From Candidatus Parcubacteria bacterium (lineage in GTDB: Bacteria > Patescibacteriota > Minisyncoccia > Minisyncoccales > JAGMDC01), in NCBI GenBank assembly GCA_023131895.1, contig JAGLYZ010000004.1:29895-93894 (forward strand): a DNA stretch of 64,000 nucleotides, in the 5' to 3' direction. The notes beneath the pieces are model-generated. The model had not been told where the DNA came from and made no database searches. It saw nothing but the letters and a program-made list of their open reading frames with translations. The translations under genes were made by a program, and so were the position numbers. Shown here one piece after another: positions 2,558 to 59,119 of this stretch. Every line of letters begins with the position of its first letter. The first letter of the stretch is position 1.

Positions 2558-2620
2558 TCACCCTGTTAAATGCTGCTTCGCAGCAATTTTGCCGAAGGCA
2601 AAATTATTTAACAGGGTAAA
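2558..2620 (+). repeat. Palindromic element PE copy 1 (intergenic, pilN-like/pilO-like spacer)
   Basis: TCACCCTGTTAAA ... TTTAACAGGGTA arms enclose hairpins GCTGC-TTC-GCAGC and TTTTGCC-GAA-GGCAAAA. Confidence 0.85.
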
Positions 2621-2625
2621 CAACA

Positions 2626-3204
2626 ATGAAAAGACCTATTATTTTTATAACCATTACATCTTTAATCGTCATTTTACTGGCCTTTTTTGTGCTTTTGCCA
2701 AAATATGAAGAATTAGATGCTAAAGATTATCAACTTGAAGGAAGAAAAGTGGCTCTTGAAAAGATAAATGATTATTTTGAGGATCTTGCTTCTCAAAACA
2801 AAAAATTAGCAGAATACGAAGAATCAATGGCAAAAATTAATTCAGCTTTGCCAGACAAACCTGCCATGCCTTCAGTCCTGAATTTTATTCAAAGGACAGC
2901 TAATGAAAACGGGGTTTCTTTAACATCAGCAGCATTAAGCTCTTCAAGAAAAACAACAAAAACAACAAAGACAGAAGAAACAGGAGCATCAGACATCAAA
3001 GAAAACACATTTTCCATTAGTGTTGCTGGTTCTTATTCTTCTTTTAAAAACTTTCTTTCGGTCTTAGAAAAATCAGCGCGCTTGATTGAGACAGAGACCC
3101 TGACTTTTTTTTCCTTTGGAGGAATGACAATGTATACAGGAATGCCTGATTATTCTTTAGATACTTTTCTTTTTGAGTTACAAATGAAAGTTTATTCTTA
3201 TTAA
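2626..3204 (+). CDS. PilO-like bitopic membrane protein (assignment by position and topology only)
   Basis: N-terminal TM helix, coiled-coil region, position after the pilN-like gene. Confidence 0.45.
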   Translation: MKRPIIFITITSLIVILLAFFVLLPKYEELDAKDYQLEGRKVALEKINDYFEDLASQNKKLAEYEESMAKINSALPDKPAMPSVLNFIQRTANENGVSLTSAALSSSRKTTKTTKTEETGASDIKENTFSISVAGSYSSFKNFLSVLEKSARLIETETLTFFSFGGMTMYTGMPDYSLDTFLFELQMKVYSY

Positions 3205-6769: not shown

Positions 6770-7984
6770 ATGAAATTTAAATACAAAGCAAGAACAGAAG
6801 AAGGGGAAATGCAAGAGGGTGTTATAGAAGCAAGCTCAAAAGAAAGCGCTTCGGATATCTTAGAAAGCTACAATCTTTTTGTGGTCTCTTTAGTTGAATC
6901 CCAGCTTATTCCTGTTTGGTTAAGGGATATAAAGATTTTTAATATGGTAAGCCAGAAAGATGTAGTGATTTTTTCCAGACAGCTTTCTATGATGTTTGAG
7001 GCAAATGTTCCTTTAATAGAGTCGTTGGAAACATTGGGTTCGCAGCAAAAAAATCCTATTTTTAAAGAAAATGTCTTAGAAATAGCCAAAACAGTAGAGG
7101 GAGGAACATCTTTGTCAGAGGCATTTAGTAAATATCCGGAAGTTTTTTCCCCTTTTTATGTTAATATGATAAAGTCAGGCGAGGCATCAGGAAAGCTTTC
7201 TGAAGTTTTAAAGTATTTAGCAGATCGTTTGGAAAGGCAGTATGAGTTTATGTCAAAAATAAAAGGGGCAATGATTTATCCAATTTTAGTGATATTTGTT
7301 TCTTTTATTGTAATTGGCATAATTGTTTTCTTTGTTATGCCCCAGTTTGCTGGCATATTTGCCGCTTCTGAAAATGAACTGCCTTTATTCACCAAGATAG
7401 TTCTTGGCGCGTCTGAATTTTTAAGGAACTGGATTTTAATCATACTGGTTTTAGTTTTAGGTCTTTTAGGTTTTGCTTTTTTCTATCTCAGGAAAACTAA
7501 GGAAGGCAAGGAGTTTATAGACGAACATATATTAAATATTCCTGTTTTAGGCAATTTTTTGAAAATGTTTTATCTCTCACGTTTTGCCCAGAATCTTTCT
7601 ACTTTAATTGCAGGCGGCCTGCCTATTGCCCAAGCCCTGAGAATCTGCAGTGATATTGTTAATAATAATATCTATAAAGACATTGTTTTAAAGACCCAGG
7701 AAGGAGTTAAGAAAGGAAGAACCATAAACTCTGTTTTAGTCAGGTATCCTGATTATTTTCCGCCTATTTTTACACAGATGGTTGCTACTGGAGAAAAAAC
7801 AGGACAGCTGGAAGACAGCTTGAGCAAGATAGCTATTTTCTTTCAAAAAGAAGTAGAAAGGGCTCTTGATGTTCTTTTAAGCGTTATTGAACCAGTATTG
7901 ATTGTGTTTTTAGCTTTGATCGTAGGAATCATTGCAGCTGCTGTCTTTATCCCTATGTACGACTTCATTGGAACAGCAATGTAA
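6770..7984 (+). CDS. pilC: Type IV pilus platform protein PilC (T2SS F family)
   Basis: Two T2SSF-like repeats, three TM segments, about 400 aa, follows pilB/pilT. Confidence 0.9.
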   Translation: MKFKYKARTEEGEMQEGVIEASSKESASDILESYNLFVVSLVESQLIPVWLRDIKIFNMVSQKDVVIFSRQLSMMFEANVPLIESLETLGSQQKNPIFKENVLEIAKTVEGGTSLSEAFSKYPEVFSPFYVNMIKSGEASGKLSEVLKYLADRLERQYEFMSKIKGAMIYPILVIFVSFIVIGIIVFFVMPQFAGIFAASENELPLFTKIVLGASEFLRNWILIILVLVLGLLGFAFFYLRKTKEGKEFIDEHILNIPVLGNFLKMFYLSRFAQNLSTLIAGGLPIAQALRICSDIVNNNIYKDIVLKTQEGVKKGRTINSVLVRYPDYFPPIFTQMVATGEKTGQLEDSLSKIAIFFQKEVERALDVLLSVIEPVLIVFLALIVGIIAAAVFIPMYDFIGTAM

Positions 7985-8072: not shown

Positions 8073-8136
8073 TCACCCTGTTAAATCTTTCCGAAAATTT
8101 CGGAAAGAAAATCAAAGATTTTATTTAACAAGGTAA
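8073..8136 (+). repeat. Palindromic element PE copy 2 (intergenic, upstream of pilin gene; right arm degenerate)
   Basis: TCACCCTGTTAAAT ... ATTTAACAAGGTA with hairpins CTTTCCGAAA-AT-TTCGGAAAG and AAAATC-AAA-GATTTT. Confidence 0.8.
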
Positions 8137-8173: not shown

Positions 8174-8596
8174 ATGAAAAAATTTACTAAACGAGGTTTT
8201 ACCTTGATTGAACTATTAGTCGTCATCGCTGTTATCGGAATTCTGTCCTCAATCGTGTTGGTCTCCCTATCCGGCGCAAGAGATAAAGGTTATGATGCTC
8301 AAATTAAAGGAGAATTAGGTCAGGTAAGAGCAGATACAGAGATACATTATGATAATGCTGAGAGTTATACAGGATATACAATACCTACAAATTTATTGCC
8401 TCCTGCTTGCAGTGAAGATGGAGCTTATAATGTGGTAGTTTCAGCAGATGGACAGGATTACGCAGCTTGGGGAGATTTATGCTCATCAGCAGTAGATACT
8501 TGTGATTTTTGTATTGATTCTACTGGTGTAGCTTGTACGACTGTTGCAGCATCTCCCCACCCTACTGCTCTAGCTCCTGTTTGTGCTTGTCCATAA
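8174..8596 (+). CDS. Type IV pilin (prepilin-type N-terminal cleavage/methylation domain)
   Basis: Leader MKKFTKRG followed by FTLIELLVVIAVIGIL. C-terminal cysteines. Confidence 0.85.
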   Translation: MKKFTKRGFTLIELLVVIAVIGILSSIVLVSLSGARDKGYDAQIKGELGQVRADTEIHYDNAESYTGYTIPTNLLPPACSEDGAYNVVVSADGQDYAAWGDLCSSAVDTCDFCIDSTGVACTTVAASPHPTALAPVCACP

Positions 8597-9190: not shown

Positions 9191-9210
9191 AATTTTTCAG
9201 CAGAAGATCC

Positions 9211-9229
9211 ACGAAGGTCGGGCCTTCGT
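9211..9229. repeat. REP-like hairpin (left of the RAYT gene)
   Basis: ACGAAGG-TCGGG-CCTTCGT, a 7-bp stem. Confidence 0.75.
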
Positions 9230-9238
9230 TTATCTAAA

Positions 9239-9955
9239 ATGCCAACAAGAAAACACAAATTAGCTAATAATGAGATTTATCATATTATTATTAGAGGAGT
9301 AAATGACTCTGAGATTTTTAAAGATATAAATGATTATTATAGAGCAATTTTTTCCATTTACGAATTTAATACTATTAACTCTGTTGATATCAGACAAAAA
9401 AGAGAGCAACGAGCTCTCACAAAGAAAAACATAAACCAAGGTCGGGCCTTCGTTGATAATAGAGACTTGTTAGTAGAGATATTATGTTTTTGTTTTATGC
9501 CGAATCATGTTCATTTATTGCTCAAGCAGATAAAAGATGATGGAATAACTAAATTTATGAGAAAATTGGGTTCAGGTTATGCAAGTTATTTTAACAAAAA
9601 ATACAGTCGAAAAGGTTATCTTTTTCAAGGAAGATTTTTTCCGGTTCATATTAAAACAGACGAACAATTGCAAGTTATTTTTGCTTATATTCACGTTAAT
9701 TCCATATCTTTGATAGAGCCAAAATGGAAAGAAATTGGAATCCAAGATATAGAAAAAGTCATTAGTTTTTTAGAGGATTATAAATGGTCAAGTTATCCTG
9801 ATTATATTGGCAAGAAGAATTTTCCTTCAGTAACCCATAGAAATTTTATGTTAGAAATGATGAATAAAGAAAAAGGTTGCAAAGATTTTATTGAAAATTG
9901 GATTAGGTACAAAAGCAAGATTAAAAAATTGCCAGATATTGTCTTGAAGAGCTAA
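9239..9955 (+). CDS. REP-associated tyrosine transposase-like protein (IS200/IS605 TnpA Y1 family, RAYT-like)
   Basis: HUH motif in MPNHVHLLL. Tyr-containing AYIHVN motif typical of Y1 transposases. Flanked by REP-like hairpins in opposite orientation. Confidence 0.8.
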   Translation: MPTRKHKLANNEIYHIIIRGVNDSEIFKDINDYYRAIFSIYEFNTINSVDIRQKREQRALTKKNINQGRAFVDNRDLLVEILCFCFMPNHVHLLLKQIKDDGITKFMRKLGSGYASYFNKKYSRKGYLFQGRFFPVHIKTDEQLQVIFAYIHVNSISLIEPKWKEIGIQDIEKVISFLEDYKWSSYPDYIGKKNFPSVTHRNFMLEMMNKEKGCKDFIENWIRYKSKIKKLPDIVLKS

Positions 9956-9979
9956 ACGAAGGCCCGACCTTCGTTTAGC
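9951..9979. repeat. REP-like hairpin (right of the RAYT gene, inverted relative to the left copy)
   Basis: GCTAAACGAAGG-CCCGA-CCTTCGTTTAGC, a 12-bp stem overlapping the RAYT stop codon. Confidence 0.75.
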
Positions 9980-13463: not shown

Positions 13464-15137
13464 ATGTATTTTAAAATTTTTCATAATCAAAAAGGACAAA
13501 TCGCCTTATTAATCACCCTCGTCATTTTAGGCGCTATTTTATCCATTGGCGCTGGTTTAACTTTGGTTACTATTAAAGAAATGAGAATGTCAAAGACCAC
13601 AGTAGAATCAATTCAAGCTTTTTTTGTAGCTGATAGCGGAATGGAATATGCTTTGCACGAAACCTATAAAAGAGGAGGCACGCCGCCAACTGGTACTTGT
13701 GATAATATTGGCGAAGGCGAATATTGTCTGGATACTGATGAAGGAATTGAATCTATTGGAACAGTGAAAGGAAAAAGAAGAACTGTTCGGATTATTAATA
13801 ACTGGGCAAAAGTTTATGGAGGGACAGGCGATGATGAGATATCAGAGGCCTTTCGAATTCCTGGTGGAGGATATAGTTTGCTTATGGATACAACATCTTA
13901 TGGACCTCACGCTGCAGCAGGAGATTTTGTTATTGTGGATATAGATGCAGATGGAACACCAGAATTAGGAAAGGCGTTTGGAGGAAATAATAGAGAGACA
14001 ATCTACGAGGCAGTTTCACATAGGTTGCCAAGTGGAGGATATATTATAACCGGCAAAACAAAATCTTATGGTAATGGAGATTATGATATATTTGTACTTA
14101 AATTAGATGCTAATAAAGATCCACTATGGCAAAAGACTTTTGGAGGACCAGATTTTGAGGAAACACTTGACATTAAACTGACTCCGGCCGCTTCAAATGG
14201 AGGGTGTATATTATGGGGTGGAACAAAATCTTATGGCGCCGGAGATGAAGATACTCTTGTCATAAAATTAGATGATAATGGAAACCAGGAATGGGCGTAT
14301 ACTTTTGGAGGAGTAAATTGTGATAGGGGGGGATCAATGGATTTAGCTGGTTCAGGATATATTCTTATGGGCGACACAGAATCATACGGAGAGGGGTATA
14401 AGGATCTTTTTCTTATTAAATTAAATAGTAATGGTATTTTACAATGGGCAAAAACATTTGGATACAGCAACAGAAGTGAATATTGCGCTTCAAATATCAC
14501 AACTTCAGATGGGGGGCAAATAATGAGCACTTATGATATGTATAATCGTGTTGGAGGTTCTTTCAGAAAAATGTGTGGCACTTTAATTAAATTAGATAGT
14601 AGTGGTGATCAAGAGTGGGTAACAAGATGTTTTTCTCCAGGTGGCTGGGGCGGGCTTGGCGGGCCAGAAAAAGCATTAGATGGAGGCTATTTTAGTGTGG
14701 GAAGTTACTACGTAGGTGGTGGCAAATGGCATGGTTTTTTTGTTAAATTTGATGATAATGGAAATGAGCAATGGACAAAATATTTTGCAGGAGGTGGTTC
14801 GGACTCTTTTTCTAATCTTAGTGAAAACTATACTTTAGATAGAGGATATTTTATGGTTGGTAATACCACATCTTGGGGAGCAGGGGGTAAAGATGGCATT
14901 TTTTTGAAGATGTCTAAAGATGGTTTGATATATGATTGTCCGCCTTTTACGAGCGCTGCTGCGCCGATTTGCAGTTCAGTAGGTGCTGTGCCAACCCATG
15001 ACATAACAGGAGACATAATAGTTACTCCCCTTGTTGTTGACGAAACAAACTTTACTTTTGACATAGAAGATGACGTTGTTATAGATTCTTCTAATGTCTG
15101 CACTGGAGCTGGAGCAAAATGGATAGAGATTAGATAA
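13464..15137 (+). CDS. PilX_N-like minor pilin fused to a repeat (beta-propeller-like) domain; candidate pilus tip protein
   Basis: N-terminus GQIALLITLVILGAILSIG resembles the PilX N-terminal domain. Followed by about 8 repeats of about 50 aa (W..tFGG...GGy.l.G.T.SYG.G..D.l.iKld.nG...W). Confidence 0.6.
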   Translation: MYFKIFHNQKGQIALLITLVILGAILSIGAGLTLVTIKEMRMSKTTVESIQAFFVADSGMEYALHETYKRGGTPPTGTCDNIGEGEYCLDTDEGIESIGTVKGKRRTVRIINNWAKVYGGTGDDEISEAFRIPGGGYSLLMDTTSYGPHAAAGDFVIVDIDADGTPELGKAFGGNNRETIYEAVSHRLPSGGYIITGKTKSYGNGDYDIFVLKLDANKDPLWQKTFGGPDFEETLDIKLTPAASNGGCILWGGTKSYGAGDEDTLVIKLDDNGNQEWAYTFGGVNCDRGGSMDLAGSGYILMGDTESYGEGYKDLFLIKLNSNGILQWAKTFGYSNRSEYCASNITTSDGGQIMSTYDMYNRVGGSFRKMCGTLIKLDSSGDQEWVTRCFSPGGWGGLGGPEKALDGGYFSVGSYYVGGGKWHGFFVKFDDNGNEQWTKYFAGGGSDSFSNLSENYTLDRGYFMVGNTTSWGAGGKDGIFLKMSKDGLIYDCPPFTSAAAPICSSVGAVPTHDITGDIIVTPLVVDETNFTFDIEDDVVIDSSNVCTGAGAKWIEIR

Positions 15138-15157
15138 GTAATTGTGCAGAAATTTCA

Positions 15158-15181
15158 CAGGGGCCCGACCCCTGTTTTTTC
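15158..15181 (+). terminator. Rho-independent terminator after the pilus operon
   Basis: CAGGGG-CCCGA-CCCCTG followed by TTTTTT. The loop sequence is the same as in the REP family. Confidence 0.7.
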
Positions 15182-18413: not shown

Positions 18414-20948
18414 ATGAGTAATAATTCAGAAAAAGAAAAACCAAAAGAAAAAACAGCTGAAATTGGTTATATAAAGCCCAGAGAAATTACTGAAGAAATG
18501 AAGGAATCATATATTGATTATGCTATGTCAGTAATTGTTGCCAGGGCTTTGCCTGATGTTAGAGACGGTTTAAAGCCGGTTCATCGCCGGATTTTGTATG
18601 CAATGTTTGAAGATGGCCTGAAGCATGATGCTAAATTTAGAAAATCAGCTACCGTAGTGGGTTCAGTTTTGGGTCGTTACCATCCTCATGGCGATACTGC
18701 TGTCTATGATTCTTTAGTGCGAATGGCACAGGATTTTTCTTTGAGATATCCTTTGATTAAAGGTCAAGGAAATTTTGGATCAATCGATGGCGATCCAGCG
18801 AGCGCCATGAGATATTCAGAGGCGAAACTTTCCAAAATTGGTGAGGAAACATTAAAAGATATCACTAGAGAGACAGTGGATTTTAGGGATAATTATGACG
18901 GGACCAGGAAAGAACCGACTGTCTTGCCCTCGCCAATGCCCCAGCTTTTATTAAATGGTTCTTTAGGAATCGCAGTTGGCATGATGACTAATATCCCTCC
19001 TCATAATTTGTCAGAAGTGGCAAATGGAGCTATTCATTTAATTGATAATCCAAAGGCAACGACAGAAGACCTTTTTGAATTTATTAAAGGGCCTGATTTT
19101 CCTACTGGCGGCATCATCTATAATAGAAAAGAAATTATCAGCGCTTATTGCCAAGGCAATGGTCCTATAGTAATAAGGGGAAAAACAGAAACATCTGAAG
19201 ATAAAAAAGGCAGGAACAGGATTTTAATTACAGAAATCCCATATCAAGTTCAAAAATCATCTTTGGTAGAACAGTTTGCCAAGCTTGTTCAAGAAAAAAA
19301 AATCACTGGTATTAGAGATATTAGAGACGAATCAGACAGGGAAGGTATGAGAATTGTTATTGAACTTCAGCGCGATGCTTTCCCGCAAAAAATCTTGAAT
19401 CGGCTTTATAAATTTTCCGATCTTCAAAAAACATTTCATCTTAATATGCTTGCTTTGGTAGATGGTATCCAGCCAAAGGTTTTATCACTTTTAGAGGTCT
19501 TAAACTACTTTATAATTCATAGAAAAGAAGTAGTAATCAGAAGAACCAAATATGATTTGCGCAAAGCAGAAGAAAGAGCGCATATTTTGGAAGGCTTGCA
19601 TAAATGTCTGTCAAAGATTGATGAAGTGATTAAGACAATTAAAGCATCGGCTAACCGGGAAGATGCGCTGAAGAATTTAATGAAAAAATTCAAGCTTACT
19701 GAAATTCAGGCAAACGCTATTTTAGAGACAAAGCTTTCTGCCTTAGCAAAGCTGGAAAGAAAGAAAATTGAGGAAGAATTGGCAGAAAAGAAAAGGCTAA
19801 TAAAAGAATTAGAAGCTATTTTAAAAAGCCCGCAAAAAATTAAAGAAGTCATTAAAAAAGAGCTTAGAGAAATTATTGAAAACTTCGGCGATGAAAGAAG
19901 AACCAAGCTTGTTGTCCAGAAAGTCGGCGAAATTGCTGAAGAGGATTTAATTCCGCAGGAAGAAACGATTATTACTTTAACCCAAGGCGGGTATATAAAA
20001 AGAGTGAATCCTAATGTTTATAAGATCCAAAAGAGAGGGGGCAAGGGCATTATGGGGATGAAAACTTTAGGAGAAGATATTGTAGAACATTTCCTTTTTT
20101 GCCAAACCCATGACGAACTTCTTTTCTTTACTGATTCAGGAAAGGTTTTTAAAATTCCTGCTTATGAAGTTCCTGAAGGAACAAGGGTTGCTAAAGGCAG
20201 AGGAATTTTGAATTTTTTAGAGCTTACTCCTCAAGATAAGATATTATCTATTCTTCATTTTAAAAAAAAGGGAGACCAAGAAGATGAAATGAAGTATTTA
20301 GTAATGGCAACGAAAAATGGTATGATAAAGAAAACAGATTTAAGCGAATTTGAAAATGTAAGAAGGTCAGGCTTAATTGCTATTAATCTTAAAAAAGGTG
20401 ATTCGCTTAGAAGTGTAAATAGAACCTCTGGCCATGATGAAATAGCCTTTGTGACCAAAAAAGGACAGTCAATTAGGTTTAAAGAAGATAATGTGCGACC
20501 TATGGGCAGGACAGCTGCTGGGGTGACTGGAATAAGATTAAAGGGGGACGATGAGTTGATTGGAATGGACGTTATTCACCCTGTTAAATTGTCCCGAAAG
20601 TTTTCGGGACACCTCGCAAAGCGAGGATTTAACAGGGTAAAAATTCAAAACTATCTTTTAGTTGTAAGCGAGAACGGATATGGAAAAAGAACTGATTTAA
20701 AAGAATACAGATTACAGACAAGGGGCGGTTCTGGAATAAAGACAGCCAATATTACTGAAAAGACAGGAGATTTGGTTGCCTCTAAGGTTCTTTCTGGAGA
20801 GGAGGAAGATTTAATCGTTATTTCTCGAAAAGGCCAGATTATCAGAACTCCTGTTAATTCTATTTCTATAATCAGCAGGTCAACGCAAGGCGTAAGAATA
20901 ATGCGCTTGGACAAAGGAGATAAGGTGGCATCAGGCGCTTGTATATAA
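18414..20948 (+). CDS. gyrA: DNA gyrase subunit A
   Basis: [16 protein letters not shown], catalytic Tyr context AMRYSEAKL, GyrA-box-like region and C-terminal beta-pinwheel repeats. Confidence 0.97.
20576..20640 (+). repeat. Palindromic element PE copy 3 (in-frame inside the gyrA C-terminal domain)
   Basis: TCACCCTGTTAAAT-GTCCCGAAA-GT-TTTCGGGAC-A-CCTCGC-AAA-GCGAGG-ATTTAACAGGGTAA. Translated as [22 protein letters not shown]. Confidence 0.85.
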
Positions 20949-25011: not shown

Positions 25012-26211
25012 TTAATTTATTCTAAGATTAGCATTAACTTTAATATTTTTCCAATTTTGAGTTTCTTTTTTATGGAAATAAGCAGTTATGCCTATCATCG
25101 CAGCATTGTCAGTGCAGAATTTTTTTGTGGGAGCTAAAAAAACAAATTGGCTGCCAGTCATTGATAATTTCTTTTTAAATTGTTTTTGCAGTTCTTCATT
25201 AGCAGAAACGCCTCCGCCAAGAATAATTGTTCTTACTTTATAATCCTTTGCTGCTTTTATGGTTTTTTTAATTAAAATATCAATTACTGCTTGTTGTATT
25301 TCCTTGCACATTGCTTGAATATATTTTTCTTTTTTTACCCTGTTAAATAAAATCTCTGATTTTCTTTTGCTGGAAGCAAAAGATTTAACAGGGTGAACCG
25401 CATATAAAACAGCGGTTTTTAATCCAGAAAAACTAAAATCATAATCCTTGCTATACATCATCGGTCTAGGTAATTTTACCCTGTTAAATAAAATCTCTGA
25501 TTTTCTTTTGCTGGAAGCAAAAGATTTAACAGGGTGAATTTTAGATTTCCATTGCCGAGCTTGTTCCGCGATGGCTGGACCGCCAGGGTAACTAAGCCCT
25601 AAAATCCGAGCTGTTTTGTCAAAACATTCCCCTGCAGCATCATCTCTTGTTTCTCCGAGAATTTTGTATTTTCCAATATCTTTCATTAAAATCAATTGTG
25701 TATGCCCGCCGCTTACAACTAGGCATATCGCAGGAAATATTTTTTTTGGATTTTGGATTTTGGATTTCTCGCCAATTTGTAGGAGCAAATTGGCGAGAAT
25801 ATGTGCCTCAATATGGTTAACTGGTATAATTTTTAAATTCCATAAACGAGCTAAAGATTTAGCGAAGTTCACACCTGTCCATAAACAAGGTTCCAGGCCA
25901 GGGCCAGTAGTCACAGCAATCAAATCAATTTTCGGTTTTATAAAGTTTTTTATTCCTGCTTTTTTCAAAGCTTTTTTCAACACTGGTAAAAGATTTTTCT
26001 GGTGTTCTCTTTTTGCCATTGCCGGGTACACTCCTCCATATTTTTTGTGAATTTCTATCTGTGATGAAACAAAATTAGAGAGAATTTCTACCCTGTTAAA
26101 TAATTTCGCTTTTGGCGAAATTCCCCGATTTATCGGGGATTTAACAGGGTGAATTTTTAAAATACTAATACAAGTATCATCACAAGATGTTTCAATTGCT
26201 AAGATAATCAT
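25012..26211 (-). CDS. tsaD: tRNA N6-adenosine threonylcarbamoyltransferase TsaD, interrupted in-frame by three palindromic elements
   Basis: IETSCDDT, YGGVYP, HIEAH, VSGGHTQL, DDAAGECFDKTARILGL, PRPM, DFSFSGLKT, GGGVSAN, FCTDNAAMI. Confidence 0.93.
   Translation of the reverse strand: MIILAIETSCDDTCISILKIHPVKSPINRGISPKAKLFNRVEILSNFVSSQIEIHKKYGGVYPAMAKREHQKNLLPVLKKALKKAGIKNFIKPKIDLIAVTTGPGLEPCLWTGVNFAKSLARLWNLKIIPVNHIEAHILANLLLQIGEKSKIQNPKKIFPAICLVVSGGHTQLILMKDIGKYKILGETRDDAAGECFDKTARILGLSYPGGPAIAEQARQWKSKIHPVKSFASSKRKSEILFNRVKLPRPMMYSKDYDFSFSGLKTAVLYAVHPVKSFASSKRKSEILFNRVKKEKYIQAMCKEIQQAVIDILIKKTIKAAKDYKVRTIILGGGVSANEELQKQFKKKLSMTGSQFVFLAPTKKFCTDNAAMIGITAYFHKKETQNWKNIKVNANLRIN
25333..25397 (-). 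repeat. Palindromic element PE copy 4 (in-frame in tsaD)
   Basis: Identical over 65 nt to copy 5. Hairpins AAAATC-TCT-GATTTT and CTTTTGC-TGGAA-GCAAAAG. Read as HPVKSFASSKRKSEILFNRV. Confidence 0.9.
25474..25538 (-). repeat. Palindromic element PE copy 5 (in-frame in tsaD)
   Basis: Identical over 65 nt to copy 4, located 141 nt away. Confidence 0.9.
26088..26153 (-). repeat. Palindromic element PE copy 6 (in-frame in tsaD)
   Basis: Same arms. Hairpins ATTTCGC-TTTTG-GCGAAAT and TCCCCGA-TTTA-TCGGGGA. Read as HPVKSPINRGISPKAKLFNRV. Confidence 0.9.
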
Positions 26212-54415: not shown

Positions 54416-55042
54416 TTATTCTTCTTTCAAAAAATCTAAATTTTTTGGCATTTTCTTTAAAGGTTTTTCAAAGCGCAGTTTTGGGACTTTTTTATAGTTT
54501 TTGTTTTTTATCCAGCCGGTTTTAGTATAAAAATAACCGGCGCCTCCCATTTTTCCTAATTCATCATAAATATTTTTATTTTTTATAGAAACCCAATTCG
54601 CGATTTTCAACTCTTTTTTTAATGGGTTGATAGTTATGGCAGCATATTTTGGCGGAAAAATTACGCATTCTCCTTTTTTTGCTTCAACAACAACAATGTC
54701 TTCAATAATCTTTCCTTTTGTTTTTTGCATTAAAAAAATTGCTTTTCCATCAAGTACAATATATAACTCTTGGAAATTTTTTGAGTTCATATTGCCTTTA
54801 GTCCTTACAAACTCTTTGCCCAGCATTCTTGCAGGAATAATCGTAATATCATATCTTAACCCTGTTAAATGCCGCTTTGCGGCACCCCGCCTTTTATGTA
54901 AAGGCTGGGTATTTAACAGGGTAAATTCTCCTTTATGTTTTATACCGCGATGCATATAATAAAGCTCAAGATTTGGTGCTGTTTTTACCCATTTCTGGTC
55001 ATAAAGAACTTTTTTCATGTCATTTAAATATCTTATTTCCAT
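54416..55042 (-). CDS. Cupin-type glucose-6-phosphate isomerase-like protein (metal ligands substituted), with in-frame palindromic element
   Basis: LGKEFVRTKGNMNSKNFQELYIVLDGKAIFLMQ and VIFPPKYAAITIN align by eye with the archaeal cupin PGI blocks GKEFFFTKGHFH...EVY and PPYWAHRTVN. Confidence 0.65.
   Translation of the reverse strand: MEIRYLNDMKKVLYDQKWVKTAPNLELYYMHRGIKHKGEFTLLNTQPLHKRRGAAKRHLTGLRYDITIIPARMLGKEFVRTKGNMNSKNFQELYIVLDGKAIFLMQKTKGKIIEDIVVVEAKKGECVIFPPKYAAITINPLKKELKIANWVSIKNKNIYDELGKMGGAGYFYTKTGWIKNKNYKKVPKLRFEKPLKKMPKNLDFLKEE
54857..54925. repeat. Palindromic element PE copy 7 (in-frame in the cupin gene, in a different reading frame of the arms)
   Basis: AACCCTGTTAAAT-GCCGC-TTT-GCGGC-A-CCCGCCTTT-TATGT-AAAGGCTGGG-T-ATTTAACAGGGTAAA. 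Read on the minus strand as TLLNTQPLHKRRGAAKRHLTGL. Confidence 0.85.
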
Positions 55043-57712: not shown

Positions 57713-59119
57713 CTATTCAAGATAATTCTTTTCAAACCACCAGGTTAGGATTTTTTGGACATCATCTTTGAGGTCGTCGGATTTTAAAAGAACAATTATA
57801 ATATTGTGCGAAGTGTTGTCTGGCAATGGCAATTCAAATATAAATATGCCGGTATATTTTGATTCTATAATAAATCCGGTTTTGCCGCCTAAAAAGTCCT
57901 TGCTTTCCGGAAAAATATTTTTGTTATGCAAATCTTCAAAATGAACTGTTCCAAAATCCTCTATTGTTTCTCCTTTGCTGATTTTCAAAAGAGGAGGCCT
58001 GGTATTGAAAATATATTGGCTCAAATAGAAAAGATCTTGTGCAGTAGAAACGTTTTTTTCGCTTAAGCCGCTCGGGTCGTCGTAAAAAGTATTTTTCATG
58101 CCAATCATTTTTGTTTTTTCATTCATTAATCTTATTGTTTTTTCTCTTCCTGAAAAGCGGGTTAAAATTTCAGCAGCGTCATTAGATGATTGAGTTAAAA
58201 GAGGATGAAGGAGTTCAACTAAATTGTATTTTTTTCCAGCTTCTAATCCTGGCGTAGAGCCATATGCTTTTAACATTTCTTTTGTAACCCAGATTGATTT
58301 TCTTAAATCATTATTCTCAATAGCAGCTATGGCAGTCATTAGTTTAGTTAAAGAAGCTATGGGCATTATTTTTTCAGGATTTTTTTCAGCCAAAATATAA
58401 TAATTATCAAGGTCGGCAATTAAATAAGATTCAGCAGATATTTCAGAAATAACGAAGGTCGGGCCTTCGTTGGCTAACGAAGGCCCGACCTTCGTTAGCT
58501 TGTCAATTATTAAAACAGGCATTTCTATCTCTGCAGCATTATAAATGTATTCTGCATCTTCATTAGAGAATCTAACACAACCGCCAGTATAATTGAATTC
58601 AGTTGATTGGCCATTGGAATAATACGGTTCTCCGTGAATATAGTATTTACCGTAAAAATTAATGCTCCATGGCATATAAACATGAGCAATATTGGAAAAA
58701 GCAGTTTTGTGTCCGGAAATCACTTTATAAAGACCCGAAGGAACTCCTCCCCAAAATTCAGGATCTCCTTTGGCTAAAATAGGAAGTTCTTTTTCTAATG
58801 CGCCATTTTTATAAATTTGAGCTTTCATTTCTGAAAGATTAATTTCTAAAAAATCTGTTTTTTTAGAAATAAATTCCTGCCTTTTTTCAAAACCAAAATC
58901 TTTTAATTGTTTTAGTTTTATTTCTTTTTGCTTGAGTCCTTGAAGCGTATCAGCGCTGAGAATAGTCTGATTACTTTTAGTCTCTACAAAAATTTCATTG
59001 CCAGGCATTATAAAAATTAAAAAAGCAAAAAGCCCGATTAAAAGGGCTAAAAAAATAATAGATATGCAGTTTTTTTTCAGTTTAGAACTAATCATCAGTT
59101 TATCCCGCACCTTTTTCAA
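57713..59119 (-). CDS. Fusion of an L,D-transpeptidase (YkuD) domain and a D-alanyl-D-alanine carboxypeptidase (peptidase S11) domain
   Basis: YkuD catalytic block YIHGEP...TGGCVRF. S11 SxxK motif PIASLTKLMT plus SSND (SxN). REP pair in-frame between the domains. Confidence 0.8.
   Translation of the reverse strand: MKKVRDKLMISSKLKKNCISIIFLALLIGLFAFLIFIMPGNEIFVETKSNQTILSADTLQGLKQKEIKLKQLKDFGFEKRQEFISKKTDFLEINLSEMKAQIYKNGALEKELPILAKGDPEFWGGVPSGLYKVISGHKTAFSNIAHVYMPWSINFYGKYYIHGEPYYSNGQSTEFNYTGGCVRFSNEDAEYIYNAAEIEMPVLIIDKLTKVGPSLANEGPTFVISEISAESYLIADLDNYYILAEKNPEKIMPIASLTKLMTAIAAIENNDLRKSIWVTKEMLKAYGSTPGLEAGKKYNLVELLHPLLTQSSNDAAEILTRFSGREKTIRLMNEKTKMIGMKNTFYDDPSGLSEKNVSTAQDLFYLSQYIFNTRPPLLKISKGETIEDFGTVHFEDLHNKNIFPESKDFLGGKTGFIIESKYTGIFIFELPLPDNTSHNIIIVLLKSDDLKDDVQKILTWWFEKNYLE
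58451..58497. repeat. Inverted pair of REP-like hairpins inside a CDS
   Basis: AACGAAGG-TCGGG-CCTTCGTT GGC TAACGAAGG-CCCGA-CCTTCGTTA. Translated (minus strand) within KLTKVGPSLANEGPTFVI. Confidence 0.85.

Follow-up and report, generated by a model that had tools for sequence, protein, structure and literature searches.

The stretch analysed here (the window) comprises 64,000 nucleotides of a Candidatus Parcubacteria contig (JAGLYZ010000004.1, positions 29,895 to 93,894; G+C = 34.5%) and carries exactly seven copies of a short palindromic element. Each copy is 60-66 nt long and has arms of the form [C/T]ACCCTGTTAAAT...ATTTAACAGGGT[A/G] around an interior of two adjacent stem-loops, the hairpins being of unrelated sequence from copy to copy. 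The same arms enclose elements of 281-301 bp (about 285) in related loci, and these encode a GIY-YIG nuclease of 84-85 aa. We consider it very probable that the elements form a family of miniature palindromic mobile elements linked to a nuclease. The seven copies of the window would be non-autonomous members, and five of them would be read through in essential or housekeeping genes.

Only two of the copies are intergenic. Copy 1 (2559..2618, + strand, 60 nt, 82.8 bits with the covariance model described below) lies between a pilus-assembly gene (2017-2556) and a PilO-like gene (2626-3204), and copy 2 (8074..8135, +, 62 nt) lies between pilC (6770-7984, T2SSF) and a pilin gene (8174-8596). The layout of copy 1 is CACCCTGTTAAAT / GCTGC-TTC-GCAGC / AATTTTGCC-GAA-GGCAAAATT / ATTTAACAGGGTA, which from 2559 to 2618 reads contiguously as CACCCTGTTAAAT GCTGCTTCGCAGC A ATTTTGCCGAAGGCAAAAT T ATTTAACAGGGTA. 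A single substitution is found in the 3' arm of copy 2 (ATTTAACAAGGTA).

The other five copies are located in frame within open reading frames (ORFs). Copy 3 (20577..20639, +, 63 nt) is the one element insertion in gyrA (18414..20948, +), where it encodes 21 residues of the C-terminal domain. Three copies are found in tsaD (25012..26211, -): copy 4 (25336..25395, -, 60 nt) at site 3, near residue 273, encoding HPVKSFASSKRKSEILFNRV; copy 5 (25477..25536, -, 60 nt) at site 2, near residue 226; and copy 6 (26089..26151, -, 63 nt) at site 1, near residue 21, encoding HPVKSPINRGISPKAKLFNRV. Copy 7 (54858..54923, 66 nt) is within the gene of a cupin-type glucose-6-phosphate isomerase (54416-55042, -); its orientation is ambiguous by end asymmetry and its strand was left unassigned. 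Copies 4 and 5 are identical, and the second hairpin of copy 2 is similar to theirs.

A search for the 13-nt arm, allowing at most 2 mismatches, gave 14 matches in the window, which make up 7 inverted pairs; shuffled sequences gave a mean of 1.9 and none of 100 shuffles reached 14. The 13-nt arm was not found in the window outside the copies, and a shorter 10-nt core adds no further paired arm. A covariance model was run on the window with filters off and returned the seven copies at E <= 5e-11. The next match had 16 bits (E = 0.05), and nothing else was above noise. Both searches bear out the seven positions reported in the original prediction, which was made from the letters of the window, and the hairpins quoted there were correct when checked against the sequence, as was the placing of copies 1 and 2 in a type IV pilus operon (PilO-like, PilC, pilins). 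Since arm matches are confined to paired copies and the model finds nothing else, the arms are not a frequent k-mer of the genome, one of the findings which the original prediction had named as refuting it. The position of five copies inside genes, and the existence of nuclease-encoding relatives, were both overlooked in that first reading.

Copies within genes

The in-ORF copies of the window measure 63, 63, 60, 60 and 66 nt, all multiples of 3, and are missing from homologues. TsaD has 399 aa against about 345 aa in insertion-free homologues, and each of its three copies (26089, 25477, 25336) inserts an HPVK...FNRV segment. When TsaD is aligned with solved structures, gaps fall precisely at two of the inserts, and the alignment begins past the first insert. 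Copy 7 is read in the other open frame (..TLLNTQPLHKRRGAAKRHLTGL..; ..TLLN...LTGL..). Its atypical end, AACCCTG (CAGGGTT on the gene strand), has lost the TAA or TGA stop that normally follows L-T-G.

The same was found in a census of related loci, comprising 288 copies in 1.66 Mb. Lengths divisible by 3 were observed for 46 of 54 copies within long open frames, whereas intergenic copies split 104:89:41. No gene split by an out-of-frame copy was found among the related loci; the apparent frame-shift cases (L052, L056, L084 and L047) are intergenic copies in which the upstream gene ends within the element, e.g. ..IIHPVK-stop. As the copies in essential genes are in frame and stop-free, they appear to be read through, not removed. 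One further copy was observed in an rRNA operon spacer, immediately upstream of the 23S rRNA 5' end, in a complete Nealsonbacteria genome (CP179888.1; L053 1198-1253).

TsaD homologues range from 344 to 487 aa, and many have HPVK/YPVK...FNRV segments at varying sites. A DNA alignment of the window tsaD was made with two orthologues, P0002 and P0003 (protein identity 76% and 72%). Site 2 is occupied in all three genes, and sites 1 and 3 are occupied in the window and in P0002 and empty in P0003. The empty site 1 of P0003 reads ATC^AAAAAGC and the filled site reads ATT[CACCCTG..63 nt..CAGGGTA]AAAAAGC, without target duplication. Orthologous tsaD elements are 96.7-96.8% identical, compared with 78-87% for the remainder of the gene. 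At site 3 the interior in the window is that of the window's own site-2 element, and the interior in P0002 resembles P0002's site-1 element, a pattern that indicates either conversion between copies or repeat insertion at the same spot. Inserts of this kind would account for part of the TsaD length variation. Many Patescibacteria TsaD sequences (P0005-P0101) carry other, low-complexity inserts at the same loop positions (KFQISDFKFQ, SKIQNPKSKIQN, NYKLQTTNY, FQFSIFNFQ), which suggests further families of short insertion elements in the core proteins of the Candidate Phyla Radiation (CPR).

Fold, interior sequence and distribution

The set used for the analysis of interiors consisted of 134 distinct interiors from 120 other genomes. 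Exactly two perfect adjacent hairpins (stem >= 4, loop <= 8, linkers <= 2 nt) were obtained for 79 of them, as against 21 of 6,700 shuffled interiors, and the mean folding energy was -10.7 kcal/mol compared with -4.9 for shuffles. The stems themselves are highly diverse, with 163 different stem sequences across 259 distinct interiors, and the loops are mostly triloops. In a model-fitted alignment of 141 distinct copies, each of the 14 inner-hairpin pairs occurs as all four Watson-Crick types and 98.2% of the cells are paired, against 34-52% with slid partners; this alignment is itself fitted to structure. The arms and the two hairpins meet in a three-way junction with no unpaired junction base. 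Interior parsing, the fitted alignment and the full-length relatives described below all agree with the original prediction, which held that the arms are nearly invariant and that the interior keeps only its fold, a three-way junction; the covariation expected from such constraint is present, as all 14 inner-hairpin pairs are compensated.

Mismatches in the stems are rare. G.T and A.C were each counted 3 times in about 1,900 pairs, too few for identifying the functional strand, and G.U makes up about 1.5% in the fitted alignment. No conserved unpaired nucleotides were found in the copies, and the terminal pair on the sense strand is a C.A mismatch in most of them. A search of Rfam with the whole window returned tRNAs only, and with four element-bearing loci only chance matches below the gathering and E-value thresholds. 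With G.U as rare as A.C, no conserved unpaired bases, no Rfam match and a terminal C.A on the sense strand, these sequence patterns point to a constraint on DNA (both strands or a folded single strand) rather than on RNA. The original prediction had leaned towards a structured RNA or a cruciform in intergenic DNA; most window copies are in ORFs, and the rarity of G.U favours a constraint at the DNA level.

Several groups of copies depart from the two-hairpin form. A subfamily of 62 nt in WOR-3/Stahlbacteria (L010, L014, L018, L023, L044, L049, L055, L057, L071, L076, L099 and L107) has the same arms, a distinct end type (gattca...gaacca) and a conserved 40-nt interior (ATTTACAAAATTAAGTACAAGTAATCATCTCTGGTACTTT) which is not two hairpins. 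Minimal one-hairpin forms are found at L043 and L174. In other loci copies are nested, with a complete element at the exact position of one hairpin of an outer element, or directly tandem (L083 2336-2444, L108 6852-6960, L026 5332-5518, L009 2051-2161). A modular origin of the copies, as proposed in the original prediction, is supported in part: hairpin types re-assort, whole elements stand at hairpin positions and the interior has been swapped at one tsaD site. The loop of the second hairpin is purine-rich (73 vs 23). Separately, Desulfobacterota have 48-nt forms with two 5-bp triloop hairpins, of which identical interiors recur in different metagenome-assembled genomes (MAGs; L003, L006, L020, L114 and L120; L011, L048, L063, L065, L078 and L080). 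Conservation in these forms extends into the flanks past the arms (cccccg...caagtc), as if they were inside a larger repeat.

The pattern CCCTGTTAAAT N25-55 ATTTAACAGGG, with exact arms, matched at least 120 stretches in species-representative genomes. Among the matches listed, Patescibacteria are represented by Nealson-, Doudna-, Niyogi-, Nomura-, Moranii-, Kaiser-, Sungii- and Saccharibacteria and Paceibacterota, and other phyla by Desulfobacterota, Omnitrophota and WOR-3/Stahlbacteria together with single Armatimonadota, Acidobacteriota and Deferribacteraceae MAGs. Metagenome contigs searched with the oriented arm pattern again gave at least the matches listed. Viral contigs in IMG/VR gave 0 matches, on which a viral origin was ruled out.

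Full-length elements encoding a GIY-YIG nuclease

Arms more than 70 nt apart were searched for in all related loci, which resulted in forms of 124-181 nt and two of about 285 nt. The ORF of the long form reads MF(H)YVY(I/V)LQS...FY(T/V)G(Y/F)T..LKLRFEQH...STK.R.P.KLIY.E.C....A..REKYLKT..GK....RLKSY(F/L)TG-stop and is assigned to the Pfam GIY-YIG domain (E = 4e-17). The nearest solved structures (phmmer) are BH0048 (1zg2, E = 3e-6) and EF2693 (1ywl, 8.5e-5), which places the protein in the prokaryotic Slx1-like/UPF0213 family; both are UPF0213, prokaryotic Slx1-like minimal nucleases (PMC1564403). The 3' end of the nuclease gene is also the 3' arm of the element, since ..Y-L-T-G-stop is encoded by TAT TTA ACA GGG TAA/TGA. 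Two protein queries gave more than 6,692 and more than 4,275 homologues, nearly all of 84-85 aa in the best 120 of each, and 13 of the 16 homologue sequences read terminate in ..SYLTG or ..SHLTG. Sources include Desulfatiglans, the cultured strain NaphS2, Gribaldo-, Kerfeld-, Komeili- and Kuenenbacteria, Paceibacterota and Minisyncoccia. Many homologues are on very short contigs, as expected because repeats break assemblies.

Full-length DNA was collected for seven different nuclease variants (L183/L255, L217/L245, L244, L261, L271, L277 and L283), and all seven are bounded by the arms or by compensated variants of them. Compensated arm variants observed in the family are TGTGAAAT/ATTTCACA, CCCGG/CCGGG and TTAAGT/ACTTAA. 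The seven contexts are all different: between ftsA and ftsZ (L255, arms CCCTGTGAAAT/ATTTCACAGGG); within the bAvd gene of a diversity-generating retroelement (DGR), with a two-hairpin short copy 50 nt farther along the same gene (L261); between two type IV secretion system (T4SS) pilin genes (L271); upstream of a Y1_Tnp-like gene (L277); at the 3' end of an ORF6N gene (L283); within a RAYT-like gene, ..TLWSERF / KSLIVEDG.. (L245); and in strain NaphS2 (L244, arms CCCGGTTAAAT/ATTTAACCGGG). Every one of these elements is co-oriented with the flanking host genes. This and the shortness of the leader (about 30 nt) suggest that they depend on transcription by the host. Apart from L261, both forms occur together on one contig at L183 and abut at L248. 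No larger, transposase-sized element with these arms was found, paired arms being at most 286 nt apart in the 1.66 Mb.

An alignment of the seven full-length elements (A2) gave three helices: the arms (1-13/289-301), stem A (14-24/111-121) and stem B (122-131/279-288). In stem A the 5' leader is paired with the codons D/N-L-K-L, and in stem B the codons R-F-E pair with those for L-K-S. Each helix directly adjoins the next, leaving no junction base unpaired. Of the cells in A2, 96.2% are paired, and 9 pairs have changed at both positions; stem A (e.g. AATTTTAAATT/AATTTAAAATT, AGCTTGAGGTC/GACCTCAAGCT, AATTTCAGGT/ACCTGAAATT), with 11 pairs, accounts for 6 of these. None of 500 shuffles reached the covariation score, and slid partners were 24-50% paired. 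Stem A could also limit translation of the nuclease. From these alignments the three-way junction appears to be ancestral to both forms, the short copies having two small hairpins in the same arrangement instead of stems A and B with their long loops. In forms of intermediate length (124-154 nt; L052 5169-5322, L214, L236, L041), stems A and B can still be recognised and their loops are shortened. A simple collapse of stems A and B was considered as the source of the short hairpins; it fits the intermediates at L052, L214 and L236, but not most 60-nt copies.

A number of observations were made beside these. Other small GIY-YIG genes are found with different inverted repeats at L155 2321-2518 (CCCCCACACCTAATCAGGA), L096 7312-7557 (TCCCGTTAGGG/CTCTAACGGGA) and L261 8-268 (..ATCTAACGGGG), and the design of a nuclease between repeats may extend beyond this arm family. 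The bAvd gene at L261 (271-895) is the DGR accessory gene split by the full-length element, and a second GIY-YIG element is just upstream of it. Two contigs of P0122, L246 and L248, differ upstream of the element, and a chimeric assembly at repeats is likely. In the window, a G+C-rich hairpin with a T run, terminator-like, is found at 15146-15180 (ATTTCACAGGGGCCCGACCCCTGTTTTTT), just past a gene ending at 15137 and overlapping the beginning of the ORF that follows; a likeness of its left part to the variant arm ATTTCACAGGG is probably coincidental.

Mobility, alternative explanations and known systems

Mobility was assessed from filled and empty sites. In addition to tsaD, the loci L174 and L134, with flanks 97% identical, differ by one 34-nt element with a 6-nt junction ambiguity (GTTTAC), possibly microhomology. 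Across the pairs available (L174/L134, L134/L152 and tsaD), insertions are at GAG^TTTAC, CTG^TAAAT and ATA^TCAAAA, with T/A-rich sites and no clear target-site duplication. Read inwards, the ends are TTCA in 71 cases and TTTA in 73; one of each is the commonest combination (43 elements), with TA/TA in 6 and CA/CA in 1. On one reading of these sequences, the transferred unit would be 5'-TTYA-CCCTG...CAGGG-3' on one strand and the T(A/G)AA of the opposite side would be target sequence, which would explain the end asymmetry.

The orientation relative to transcription, given in the original prediction as the same in 6 of 7 copies, is correct for the window and extends to the wider set. Of 38 in-ORF copies, 28 have the C on the sense strand of the host, and so do 55 of the 69 copies located between co-directional genes, which makes 83 of 107 scorable copies. 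Full-length elements have the C end on either side of the ORF. In the 10 cases where a gene opposes the majority of its locus, the copy agrees with that local gene 8 times, and the GC skew of the window tracks gene strand with no turning point. On these two observations an orientation linked to replication was ruled out.

Taken together, the seven copies are probably non-autonomous members, similar to miniature inverted-repeat transposable elements or MITEs, of a cross-phylum family of miniature palindromic elements, whose autonomous-type form encodes the GIY-YIG nuclease. This identification rests on the shared arms, covariation in both forms, their co-occurrence, presence and absence at the same sites, no clear duplication, in-frame read-through and the orientation bias, all of which are observed here. 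The contrast which the original prediction drew with a 'simple MITE' was misplaced, as the copies are MITE-like derivatives sharing their arms with the nuclease-encoding element.

In the mechanism we propose, the fold would be the cis-requirement for mobility. A folded single strand or an extruded cruciform would place the two ends of the element next to each other at the base of the arm stem, where the structure-specific nuclease encoded by the element would cut; eukaryotic Slx1 cuts branched DNA close to the branch point (PMC6902002). Host ligation or repair would then rejoin the DNA. The exposed non-template strand may be the preferred recipient, giving an orientation bias linked to transcription, and the arms may serve as homology for conversion between copies, leading to interior swaps and slow divergence of orthologous copies. 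The cleavage mechanism is plausible and falls somewhat short of probable.

A number of points weigh against this account. GIY-YIG enzymes are hydrolytic and incapable of rejoining DNA; rejoining, which calls for a second activity, is the main gap. Recognition of the arms or the junction by the nuclease is something that we infer. A search by tblastn found no GIY-YIG gene in the window, and a matching autonomous copy in this genome is assumed only. Among the genes of the window there is one for a Y1 (IS200-like) transposase. Most short hairpins are something other than simple deletion remnants of stems A and B, and which hairpin comes first shows no correlation with the position of the C end; the C/T asymmetry of the ends and the purine-rich loop of the second hairpin have no explanation under the proposed account. 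Finally, the taxonomic breadth is that of MAG labels, subject to possible contamination or binning errors, and repeats also cause chimeric metagenome assemblies.

The Y1 transposase of the window (Y1_Tnp, 9239-9955, Pfam E = 8e-11) invites the explanation that the repeats are REP/BIME-like and are mobilised in trans by a Y1 HUH transposase (RAYT/IS200-like) on folded single-stranded DNA (ssDNA), the GIY-YIG gene being a passenger or having a homing-type maintenance role. HUH transposases of IS200/IS605 recognise hairpins, leave no target duplication, show strand and orientation bias and can rejoin DNA, and these properties speak for the explanation. Two of the seven full-length contexts (L245 and L277) are in or beside Y1_Tnp-like genes. 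REP/BIME repeats likewise are hairpin repeats thought to be recognised as folded ssDNA without target duplication (PMC3733652). We nevertheless regard this explanation as unlikely. The Y1 gene of the window is flanked by its own, different hairpin repeat and not by these elements; the sequence of that repeat, ACGAAGGTCGGGCCTTCGT, is found at 9213, 9437 and 9958 and also at 58454 and 58479. The ends of the elements read TT[C/T]ACCCTG and lack a GTAG/CGTC tag, and only two of the seven copies lie outside genes. At L245 the Y1-like gene is the disrupted target rather than a neighbour. The arms belong to the GIY-YIG gene, and the 3' arm provides the last codons across the nuclease homologues read, which speaks for a long co-evolution of arm and nuclease. 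A somewhat less probable explanation is that pairing is unselected, perfect hairpins arising by intrastrand template switching at quasi-palindromes and by gene conversion, with only the arms mattering for mobility. It would fit the almost always perfect Watson-Crick stems, with G.T as rare as A.C, the conversion-like swap at tsaD site 3 and the high identity of orthologous copies in a more divergent gene. The WOR-3/Stahlbacteria subfamily, with arms and not two hairpins, and the one-hairpin forms (L043, L174) would fit as well. The three-helix topology of the full-length elements argues against it: stem A, a non-coding leader paired with codons, covaries at 6 of 11 pairs across about 90 nt, for which local self-correction of palindromes is insufficient. 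Furthermore, junctions stay gap-free, and 163 stem sequences still yield exactly two hairpins.

Explanations at the level of RNA fare worse. That the element is a structured RNA, serving the host as mRNA stabiliser, processing site or regulator and selected in the sense orientation, as proposed for REP/ERIC, would agree with an orientation that follows transcription, with the two copies between pil operon genes and with a stem A that pairs the leader, including the ribosome-binding region, with coding sequence and could limit nuclease translation. We consider it improbable, given that there is no Rfam match and no conserved unpaired nucleotide, that the sense-strand terminal pair is a C.A mismatch in most copies and G.U is not enriched, that most window copies are in coding sequence and about 22% of copies antisense, and that the presence of copies varies between close relatives. 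It is very improbable that the element is an intron-like intervening sequence removed after transcription, which would leave host proteins insert-free. A stable stem would bring both ends together, and copies are found in essential genes; against this stand the 46 in-ORF copies (of 54) that have no stop and a length divisible by 3, the lack of any gene split by an out-of-frame copy among the related loci, and the stop after L-T-G that copy 7 has lost, which is expected only if it is translated. Excision at the RNA level was ruled out on the frame and stop statistics, the apparent shifts at L052 and L056 being intergenic copies that overlap the 3' end of a gene. Recognition of folded DNA by a tyrosine recombinase, as at integron attC or Xer/dif sites, is the last explanation considered, and one to which we give hardly any weight. 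The attC consensus is R' GTTRRRY and R'' RYYYAAC, and attC sites conserve structure over sequence; GTTAAAT and ATTTAAC of the arms fit this consensus, and in dif sites of proteobacteria it is the XerD arm whose outer end TGTTAAAT matches. Likenesses to attC also include short pairing terminal boxes, an interior variable in sequence and length with a constant fold, and a strand asymmetry from an unpaired base. The box order is however reversed here (GTTAAAT 5', ATTTAAC 3'), the copies are in housekeeping genes and the pil operon, not in cassette arrays, and a nuclease rather than an integrase or other recombinase is found between the arms. Both the attC and the Xer reading were ruled out on box order and genomic context.

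The hairpin repeat that flanks the Y1_Tnp gene (ACGAAGG-TCGGG-CCTTCGT) was observed at 9209-9233, 9433-9457, 9954-9978, 58450-58474 and 58475-58499. It is inverted around the gene, with one copy inside it, in a REP/RAYT-like arrangement within the pilus gene cluster; the copies at about 58.45 kb are another inverted pair.

Compared with known systems, the nuclease-linked elements share features with several. The Rickettsia palindromic elements (RPE), said to have been described by Ogata et al. in 2000, are reportedly repeats of 100-150 bp with conserved interiors, found in frame in genes and confined to Rickettsia and relatives; they are not known to have an associated enzyme. Both are short palindromic selfish repeats that add peptide segments in frame to genes, including essential ones, and also lie between genes, and the non-disruptive in-frame insertion typical of RPE was found here by frame and by comparison with homologues. 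The present elements are set apart from RPE in being 48-66 nt long, in an interior conserved only in fold, in occurring in several phyla and in having a nuclease-encoding relative. Bacterial MITEs such as Correia/NEMIS and ERIC (review: PMC10969869) are likewise small, non-coding and multi-copy, with terminal inverted repeats common to a longer coding element, and the short copies were found to have both properties. Classical MITEs, in contrast, derive from DDE insertion sequences, with target duplications and a recognisable interior; here there is no clear duplication, the interior is conserved in its two stems only, and the protein of the coding element, a GIY-YIG nuclease of 84 aa, is no known transposase. 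The lack of duplication and a T/A-rich, TT^AA-like target also fit IS200/IS605 elements and their PATE derivatives, from which the paired inverted-repeat ends and the GIY-YIG gene differ. That group is characterised by a Y1 HUH TnpA, hairpins in subterminal position, a lack of terminal inverted repeats and insertion beside a fixed motif of 4-5 nt.

The catalytic domain is common to GIY-YIG homing endonucleases (I-TevI, Seg-type). Those enzymes have a DNA-binding domain and one cognate site, to which they home by way of homologous flanks, whereas the present protein has 84-85 aa only and was found in seven different contexts. A 2006 phylogenomic survey of GIY-YIG nucleases regarded the prokaryotic Slx1-like proteins as repair factors passed on by vertical inheritance; neither repeats nor mobility are mentioned in it. 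The difference from UPF0213/Slx1-like proteins lies in a minimal domain between inverted repeats, at many unrelated sites and with non-coding derivatives. By shape the elements can be likened to the double-hairpin elements (DHEs) of fungal mitochondria (Paquin et al. 2000; PMC10085805), which are short and possibly mobile, have two adjacent hairpins, occur in intergenic regions and rRNA genes and have near-identical copies across species; DHEs are mitochondrial and GC-rich and have no known enzyme partner. The arm sequence gave only chance primer and plasmid matches in full-text literature. No published account was found under CPR MITEs, GIY-YIG with inverted repeats or transposons, UPF0213/YhbQ/Slx1 or GIY-YIG in CPR; many subscription papers lay outside this search, and an earlier description is possible.

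A broader proposal, tentative and on balance rather doubtful, is that these elements may belong to a class of prokaryotic transposable element that has so far gone unrecognised and that, at about 285 bp, could be the smallest to be autonomous. A minimal Slx1-like GIY-YIG nuclease, encoded by a gene that overlaps the element's own terminal repeat, would be the only protein; the cis-signal would consist of a DNA three-way junction and not of a sequence, and the element would travel as a folded single strand that host enzymes join. On this proposal the large, uncharacterised UPF0213/prokaryotic Slx1-like family would acquire a selfish function, and the elements would supply peptide insertions to essential proteins of ultra-small bacteria.

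If the interpretation as nuclease-linked mobile elements is true, the very abundant tiny proteins of the 'GIY-YIG nuclease family', to which the name 'excinuclease ABC subunit C' is often wrongly given, would gain a selfish mobile lifestyle. An enzyme of 84 aa with a 60-nt substrate makes the mechanism directly testable in vitro. The elements would offer a tractable mobile element recognised by DNA shape, with thousands of natural variants for covariation, and would pose the same puzzle as attC sites. Essential proteins of Patescibacteria with reduced genomes, such as GyrA and TsaD, would tolerate and keep inserts of 20-22 residues. There would also be a warning for annotators and assemblers, as metagenome assemblies break up at the repeats and core proteins acquire segments that look spurious.

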